In this document: one piece after another, positions 14,731-14,747 of the stretch
Numbering within the stretch: the first letter of the stretch is position 1
How the letters are laid out: every line of letters starts with the position of its first letter
Assembly (NCBI GenBank): GCA_944332715.1
Contig: CALVKN010000001.1
Span: 13,415 to 77,414, forward strand
Reading direction: 5' to 3'
Source: an uncultured Bacilli bacterium
GTDB lineage: Bacteria > Bacillota_I > Bacilli_A > RF39 > UBA660
DNA length: 64,000 bases
Translations under genes and position numbers: made by a program
The notes under the pieces: generated by a model
What the model saw: the letters and a program-made list of their open reading frames with translations, nothing else
What the model was told of the DNA's origin: nothing
The model's database searches: none

Positions 14731-14747
14731 TGTCGAATTTTGTCAGA
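14731..14747 (+). promoter_or_regulatory. tandem Spo0A-box-like motifs TGTCGAA-ttt-TGTCAGA, 9 nt upstream of the -35
   Basis: A perfect TGTCGAA plus a 5/7 second box at 10-bp phasing. The same arrangement is conserved in copies B and C. Confidence 0.45.

Follow-up and report, generated by a model that had tools for sequence, protein, structure and literature searches.

Putative Spo0A operator arrays on the toxin promoters of a multi-copy type I toxin–antitoxin-like family from uncultured sporulating Bacilli

The modules of the window and their 0A boxes

The 64,000-nt stretch analysed here (the window; positions 13,415 to 77,414 of contig CALVKN010000001.1, assembly GCA_944332715.1, from an uncultured Bacilli bacterium) is chromosomal DNA with 28% G+C. 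It carries three copies, A, B and C, of a module of about 320–330 bp (A 14731–15051, B 22783–22461, C 36311–36641). In each of them two heptamers resembling the binding site of the sporulation regulator Spo0A (0A boxes) stand upstream of a predicted promoter for a short peptide gene, and a convergent promoter on the opposite strand is predicted to give an antisense RNA. Based on the comparison of these copies with their relatives, we suggest that the modules represent a putative toxin family that is very probably wired to the sporulation decision. The features of the three copies, and of one further 0A box of the window, are as follows.

14731–14737, plus strand: copy A box 1, perfect 0A box TGTCGAA, at about −61 to −55 of the toxin promoter; it begins with the first conserved base of the module
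14741–14747, plus strand: copy A box 2, degenerate 0A box TGTCAGA, at about −51 to −45, with G2 and C4 retained
14757–14785, plus strand: copy A toxin core promoter, with −35 TTGCCT (14757–14762), a 17-nt spacer and −10 TAGAAT (14780–14785)
14792–15010, plus strand: copy A predicted toxin mRNA of about 220 nt, whose 5′ arm (14794–14817) pairs with its 3′ arm (14983–15010)
14885–14965, plus strand: copy A peptide open reading frame (ORF) with a ribosome-binding site, encoding MNNNELYLVMIVIILGLIADIKDKRR (26 residues)
14945–15051, minus strand: copy A antisense (antitoxin-like) unit, with −35 TTGAAT (15051–15046), 17 nt and an extended −10 TG-TATATT ending at 15023
22783–22777 and 22773–22767, minus strand: copy B boxes TGTCGAA and TGCCGTA
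22461–22766, minus strand: remainder of copy B, with −35 TTGTAT (22757–22752) and −10 TAGAAT (22734–22729)
22627–22547, minus strand: copy B ORF, encoding MNDNEFYLVMIVITLGLIADIKEKRR
22461–22466, plus strand: −35 TTGATA of the convergent antisense promoter of copy B
36311–36317 and 36321–36327, plus strand: copy C boxes TGTCGAA and TGTCATA
36328–36641, plus strand: remainder of copy C, with −35 TTGTAT (36337–36342) and −10 TAGAAT (36360–36365)
36471–36554, plus strand: copy C ORF, encoding MNDKIFCQVIIILVLVLFSNRGQAKRR (27 residues)
36641–36636, minus strand: antisense −35 TTGAAT of copy C
50476–50482, plus strand: intergenic perfect 0A box before spoIIGA, inverted relative to that gene (TTCGACA in the gene direction)

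The three copies were aligned with 130 nt of flanking sequence per side. Similarity runs from (A/G)TGTCGAA to the −35 hexamer of the convergent opposite-strand promoter, and the flanks are unrelated; the segment from box 1 to the antisense −35 is the minimal functional unit. The initial annotation had reported the box pairs of copies A, B and C, with conservation beginning at TGTCGAA and a second box 3 nt further on, whose end is 9 nt from the −35. Its coordinates and sequences were exact, and the layout was confirmed in all three copies. The 3-nt spacer is ttt in copies A and B and att in copy C. Downstream of box 2, the copies share a 9-nt gap (T-rich in copy A), a −35 of TTGCCT or TTGTAT, a 17-nt spacer and the invariant −10 TAGAAT.

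In copy A, transcription of the toxin mRNA is predicted to start at about 14792, at the foot of the 5′ arm, where the helix between the 5′ and 3′ arms begins. The arms lie about 190 nt apart, and the mRNA folds with −80.4 kcal/mol (z-score −8.2). The predicted antisense RNA of about 72 nt extends from about 15016 to a terminator hairpin (14975–14957) with a T-run, overlaps the toxin mRNA at its 3′ side and folds with a z-score of −5.3. The antisense unit has no 0A box. A promoter further upstream, with box 2 as its −35 (in copy A TTGTCA, 18 nt, TATCAT), was considered and rejected, since its −10 is not conserved in relatives. The conserved −10 is TAGAAT/TATAAT, with TAGAAT invariant in the promoter class of the window copies (class I, described below) and the start falling at the foot of the 5′–3′ helix.

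The heptamer TGTCGAA is found six times in the window against 2.67 expected, a number reached in 6 of 100 shuffles, and TGNCGAA 13 times against 9.8. Four occurrences of TGTCGAA are intergenic, one in each module and one before spoIIGA. The other two lie within genes for a GyrB/ParE-type topoisomerase subunit (33125–33131) and a YhcG-type nuclease (54619–54625). The initial annotation had named the spoIIGA box as the only other TGTCGAA of the window; that box is there, but the two intragenic ones had been missed. The tandem arrangement TGNCGAA-N3-TGNC is confined, within the window, to the three modules. Of note, the three copies share descent and amount to one evolutionary event, so that by themselves they are weak proof; the significance of the boxes has to come from the wider family of modules and not from counts in the window.

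The cassette family and its place among type I systems

The decisive scan used a 19-mer over the antitoxin −10 and start site, at the 3′ end of the module. Since this 19-mer carries no box information, the search was blind to the boxes and therefore unbiased. It returned 56 loci, nine of which were chance matches in unrelated phyla, while the rest (about 45) were further modules from the same clade of uncultured gut Bacilli. There are four to nine or more modules per metagenome-assembled genome (MAG), some of them in tandem arrays. The 44 distinct promoters recovered come from at least 12 MAGs and are not assembly duplicates of one sequence.

When the toxin promoters were aligned on the −10, two classes resulted. 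Class I comprises 13 distinct promoters, including the three of the window, with box 1 spanning about −61 to −55 and box 2 about −51 to −45. Its core consists of a weak −35, a 17-nt spacer and the −10 TAGAAT, and the gap between the boxes and the −35, which holds a conserved T-tract, is 9 nt long in 12 promoters and 10 nt in one. Class II comprises 31 distinct promoters with up to four phased box positions (a–d, starting at −75, −65, −55 and −45) and a core of −35 TTGCAA, a 16-nt spacer and −10 TATAAT. The proximal box d reads TGTCGAA in 26 of the 31, and its gap to the −35 is 4 nt in every one.

One to three perfect TGTCGAA boxes were present in 40 of 43 distinct toxin promoters within the 60 nt upstream of the −35. 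The chance expectation, which the initial annotation had left to be estimated and which the window alone barely exceeds, is strongly exceeded here. In these 43 × 60 nt, 66 perfect boxes were observed on the sense strand against 0.095 expected from the TGTCGAA rate in 367 kb of surrounding clade DNA, and none on the antisense strand, although the corresponding Poisson figure is not a true probability and greatly overstates independence, because the promoters share descent. The perfect boxes are spaced by 10 bp (11 cases), 20 bp (seven), 30 bp (13) or 29 bp (one). Across the 31 class II promoters, the entropy per column is 0.12 bit in box d and 0.07 bit in the −35, against 1.60 bit in the 3-nt spacer before box d and 0.94 bit in the 4-nt gap after it. 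Such conserved boxes beside randomised spacers form a footprint beyond what common descent alone explains. Among the 27 "background" boxes of the surrounding DNA, 11 are intragenic, and about 10 belong to promoters of more modules with a different 3′ k-mer.

The antitoxin promoters carry no boxes, save where the next module of a tandem array starts. Head-to-tail arrays of two or three cassettes were found at L145:5500-6532, L158:1300-1800 and L161:6200-7300, and in such arrays the next box array begins about 70–90 nt past the previous antitoxin promoter. The predicted RNA is closed by a 5′–3′ helix in 42 of 43 modules, with arm sequences that vary among subfamilies. This closure confirms the start site deduced for the toxin mRNA and indicates that the peptide RNA is transcribed from the boxed promoter. 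The peptides, 26–29 residues long, make up a single family, with the pattern M(N/S)(D/E)..F.Q(L/V)(V/I)II...K(R/D) in most complete modules.

Closer relatives of the window copies were sought by scans with a two-arm pattern and a 5′ 19-mer. The 5′-arm pattern scans gave just five more copies (L121–L125), all at one orthologous site, and a 14-mer scan of genome contigs gave chance matches in unrelated phyla and nothing else. Box 1 of the five copies is TGTCGAA in four and TGCCGAA in L121, a change at the free N of TGNCGAA; box 2 is TGTCGTA or TGTCGCA. In L123–L125 the −35 and the spacer have strongly diverged and the boxes are retained. Taken with the three window copies, the eight closest sequences vary in box 1 solely at the N, with G2, C4 and G5 constant; in box 2, G2 and C4 are constant and G5 is kept in six of the eight. 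The number of changes per nucleotide is 0.14 in box 1, 0 in the −10 and 0.33–0.67 in the other elements. This conservation is suggestive, with p of about 0.06 for six invariant box 1 columns. Ten strain-level contigs that share the protein neighbouring copy C have an identical promoter region. In the cassette of L125, a deletion of about 14 nt (L125:2530-2560) takes away most of the 3′ arm (CCACTATGGGTAACA) with both boxes still in place; it is probably a decaying copy.

The metagenome contig L124 shares its gene order with the window, at an identity of about 81% over ackA, thiI and beyond. At L124:3266-3308, 40–50 unrelated nucleotides replace module A (window 14707–15059); at L124:9685-9721, which corresponds to the window from 22450 onward, module B is absent, and L124 has its own module at a different site. 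The modules are thus accessory and have been gained or lost between related species. A comparison of occupied and empty sites revealed no target duplication and no terminal inverted repeats, by which an element like a miniature inverted-repeat transposable element was ruled out. No module match was found in viral contigs or in plasmid and phage collections.

With respect to its layout, the cassette appears to be type I toxin–antitoxin-like, with a 3′-overlapping antitoxin. A small hydrophobic peptide ORF with a ribosome-binding site lies on a structured mRNA, and a cis antisense RNA with its own promoter and terminator is predicted to overlap this mRNA; the peptide itself is presumably toxic. 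Pfam and NCBIfam returned no match to the peptide family, and Rfam returned none at the gathering threshold and none below E = 0.4 in a targeted scan. To judge by sequence, the cassette falls outside the described type I toxin and antitoxin families (Fst/Ldr, TxpA, BsrG, Rfam antitoxin RNAs). It resembles txpA/RatA, bsrG/SR4 and bsrE/SR5 of Bacillus subtilis and CD2517.1/RCd8 of Clostridioides difficile in its small hydrophobic peptide and structured toxin mRNA. Furthermore, these systems share with the modules a short convergent antisense RNA with the stronger promoter and a multi-copy, variable occurrence. The module peptides, however, are shorter than those of the known systems and have no sequence or family match among them.

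The type I systems known from Clostridia and B. subtilis have sigma-A or sigma-B promoters, stress signals and putative ResD sites (PMC6563280, PMC6562991). Spo0A boxes on type I systems were reported neither in the reviews of the Clostridia and B. subtilis systems (PMC6563280, PMC6562991) nor in the publications retrieved by full-text literature searches. The novelty would therefore appear to lie in a type I-like family distinguished by a Spo0A operator array on the toxin promoter. The skf, sdp and SpoIISA/SpoIISB systems of B. subtilis resemble the proposed modules in that toxic membrane-active products are tied to sporulation entry. They differ in being protein or peptide operons of unrelated sequence with protein immunity instead of an antisense RNA; in addition, skf and sdp hit siblings from outside the cell.

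Spo0A as the candidate binding protein and the direction of control

The 0A box, TGTCGAA, is bound by Spo0A~P as a dimer, and the footprinted Spo0A sites in phages phi29 and Nf pair a consensus box with an imperfect one at a distance of 3 bp (PMC2731898). The bases contacted by Spo0A are G2, C4 and G5, and the C. difficile protein has the same specificity as that of B. subtilis (PMC3485338). All three window copies contain a box of the form TGNCGAA, in its optimal version TGTCGAA. The tandem direct 7-3-7 layout, with its 10-bp period, is present in every window copy and close relative, and the contacted bases are conserved among the close copies. Based on these sequence features, Spo0A binding at the module boxes is highly probable, and the boxes would accordingly be Spo0A~P operators on a new, multi-copy, mobile type I toxin–antitoxin-like family.

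The core idea of the initial annotation, that Spo0A boxes tie a small membrane peptide and its antisense RNA to sporulation, is strongly supported by the sense-only phased arrays in about 40 diverged relatives, by the retention of boxes between randomised spacers, by the boxless antitoxin promoters and by a host with spore genes; what speaks against it is that spo0A has not turned up in the DNA inspected.

The closest documented operator layout is that of promoter A2b of phi29. The phi29 and Nf sites (0A-3 at A2b, 0A-1′ at A2c), like those of the modules, combine TGTCGAA with an imperfect box 3 bp away, in the sense orientation and upstream of a sigma-A −35, and they too are borne by an accessory genetic element, which senses sporulation of the host through them (PMC2731898). 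We checked the phi29 sequence, which reads TGTCGAA-aaa-CGTCAAC, followed after 16 nt by TTGCAA, the −35 of A2b. The imperfect box of phi29 hence ends 16 nt before the −35; in the modules the corresponding gap is 9 nt for the window copies and 4 nt for class II. The phage further differs in that its outcome is known to be repression and that it is not a toxin/antisense cassette.

The spoIIG and spoIIE promoters have phased 0A boxes directly upstream of a sub-optimal core with a defective −35 or spacing, and their proximal box, centred at about −40, overlaps or abuts the −35 region; Spo0A contacts sigma region 4 from a position near −42. The initial annotation had likened the window copies to them, and this likeness did not hold: box 2 of the window copies ends 9 nt before a normally spaced −35, without overlap, and the comparison fits only class II, which has its box near −42 and stands closer to these two promoters. 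The window copies have a T-rich gap, their proximal box is centred near −48, and their −35 is spaced 17 nt and not 22 nt from the −10. Moreover, the window cassettes encode a peptide of 26–27 residues, whereas the products of spoIIG and spoIIE are sporulation proteins.

We suggest the following course of events. Spo0A~P accumulates at the end of growth and would shift the ratio of toxin to antitoxin transcription, because the boxes are on the toxin promoter only. Bound just upstream of a weak sigma-A promoter (−35 TTGTAT or TTGCCT, −10 TAGAAT, no extended −10), it would raise the amount of toxin mRNA at the onset of sporulation. Activation of the toxin promoter by Spo0A~P is thus the direction that we favour over repression, although tentatively and at somewhat less than an even chance.

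The opposite direction is a serious rival, if somewhat less likely. Spo0A~P bound at about −61 to −45 could repress the toxin promoter, for example by excluding the RNA polymerase alpha subunit's C-terminal domain (alpha-CTD) from the T-rich region upstream of the −35. Silencing a stable toxin mRNA in this way would mean that none of it enters the dormant spore, in which the antitoxin RNA, being labile, would be no safeguard for the germinating cell; where a genome holds four to nine or more modules, this is a strong rationale. The T-tract conserved between box 2 and the −35 in class I fits such an exclusion. Nevertheless, no box overlaps the −35, spacer, −10 or start in any of the 44 promoters, unlike in Spo0A repression at abrB and phi29 A2c. 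All boxes lie upstream of the core promoter and none within it, which slightly favours activation, as do the weak −35 hexamers of class I. The gap between box and −35, fixed in length and variable in sequence, suggests a positional requirement and speaks for activation and against repression. The centre of class II box d near −42 would likewise suit a contact with sigma region 4 and lends activation slight support, while occlusion from upstream would weaken a strong core promoter just slightly.

Besides the shared descent of the promoters mentioned above, several observations weigh against activation by Spo0A~P. The proximal box is centred near −48 in class I and near −42 in class II, about half a helical turn apart. 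This is awkward for a single face-specific activation contact, and boxes on different helical faces relative to the −10 are better explained by occlusion. The class II cores (TTGCAA, 16 nt, TATAAT) are near consensus and look strong enough without an activator. At phi29 A2b, a nearly identical layout, with a consensus box and a promoter-proximal imperfect box upstream of the −35, represses, Spo0A keeping alpha-CTD off the UP element (PMC2731898); this is the precedent for repression. Finally, neither the window nor the loci retrieved from relatives (about 400 kb of clade DNA, searched by tblastn with a B. subtilis Spo0A query) yielded spo0A, the matches being just to generic receiver domains. 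To our knowledge, Spo0A is universal in endospore formers, and on this ground we infer that the host has spo0A.

The same negative result leaves some room for another regulator of the clade, for instance another response regulator, with the identity to the 0A box being coincidental. Many response regulators bind direct repeats with a period of 10–11 bp. We regard this as unlikely: the consensus of the 44 promoters is the exact 7-bp Spo0A core with the 3-bp spacing of footprinted sites, and the only other intergenic perfect box of the window precedes spoIIGA. Sites for WalR, PhoP, CRP/FNR, Rex and CodY and promoters for sigma-H, -E, -F, -G and -K were rejected by inspection, as the conserved G/C positions do not match; the WalR motif, TGTWAH, has a period of 11, and CRP/FNR and Rex sites are palindromic.

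Less probable still is a non-regulatory role, in which the boxes would be a structural part of the cassette, such as an UP-like element, or left-end repeats for recombination or insertion of a mobile unit. The boxes do sit at the very edge of the conserved unit, the modules are accessory, as the two empty sites of L124 show, and UP elements, which are A/T tracts, occupy the region from −40 to −60. However, conservation falls on G and C bases, in a genome with 28% G+C, and the A/T spacers are the variable part, unlike in UP elements, and there is no matching repeat at the other end, terminal inverted repeat, target duplication or recombinase. A chance resemblance spread by cassette duplication, which the lack of significant TGTCGAA enrichment in the window and the single origin of its three copies would allow, is very improbable in view of the excess of perfect sense boxes, their 10-bp phasing and their conservation beside randomised spacers.

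Returning to Spo0A~P as the ligand, the operator arrays have been kept on the toxin promoter only, despite extensive sequence turnover, which points to selection for coupling toxin output to the sporulation decision. Type I toxin–antitoxin systems are still without a convincing physiological role. If activation is the case, the cassettes would provide a developmentally triggered membrane toxin; in the case of repression, they would show how addiction modules become dormancy-compatible, which is the strategy of phage phi29. It is a rather distant prospect that the clade as a whole carries, in four to nine or more copies per MAG, an undescribed toxin/antisense cassette whose toxin promoter alone has two to four high-affinity Spo0A sites, and which may serve as a trigger or as a sink. 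As a trigger, the cassettes would be a Spo0A~P-driven self-poisoning or lysis/checkpoint device at sporulation onset. As a sink, dozens of perfect 0A boxes would titrate Spo0A~P and set the sporulation threshold. In addition, the cassette provides a sequence-based entry point to an uncultured clade that has been named Bacilli or "Tenericutes" and clearly keeps sporulation genes.

Host and genomic neighbourhood

The window contains spoIIGA-sigE-sigG next to ftsA-ftsZ, as well as genes for CotE, SpoIIIAH-like, GerM-like and YlbD proteins and for EzrA; judging from this gene content, the host is an endospore former. A SigG identical to that of the SpoIIGA-SigE-SigG host occurs on gut-metagenome contigs (BRZ_*, ONAT22, YACH19). 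The relatives that bear modules are MAGs deposited under the names "uncultured Bacilli", "uncultured Tenericutes UMGS910" and Candidatus Onthocola. UMGS910 (L144, L162, L165, L173) has the same cassettes as MAGs of the clade that, to judge by the window, possesses the full early-sporulation gene set, and its "Tenericutes" label is likely misleading.

The perfect 0A box before spoIIGA is followed by an AGCGAC-N6-GTCGCT palindrome and lies about 30 nt upstream of TGTATAAT. Within this upstream region (50439–50490), TGTATAAT is an extended −10 placed just about 20 nt before the likely ATG, a layout unlike that of the toxin promoters. Sites outside recognisable cassettes were also found in relatives. 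A triple phased array, TGTCTGA-ttt-TGTCGAG-gca-TGTCGAA, is located at L190:5950-5985, and a conserved context catactata...attaTGTCGAA recurs in three MAGs (L148:6531, L163:5497, L165:418). These non-cassette intergenic sites may be true Spo0A regulon promoters of the clade.

The ftsZ and spoIIGA genes are usually adjacent; in the window they are separated by about 5.5 kb (50599–56097). This segment encodes proteins of 461 and 224 residues, both without a family match, a Schlafen/AlbA_2 helix-turn-helix (HTH) protein and a YhcG-type PDDEXK nuclease. It has the look of an island of the defence type that was inserted here. An IS3-like element at 368–1587 consists of an HTH_28 ORF followed by an rve integrase-core ORF, and in one strain contig (L138) an rve gene similar to that of this element takes the place of a neighbour of copy C. 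Genes for tRNA-Arg(TCT) and tRNA-Arg(CCT) were found at 22858–22934 and 42721–42796, respectively. The former is on the strand opposite to copy B, 75 nt upstream of its box 1, and tRNA-adjacent sites are common for inserted elements. Also, an ordinary glmS ribozyme (Rfam RF00234, 69 bits; 61074–61220) lies directly upstream of glmS (61217–63049).

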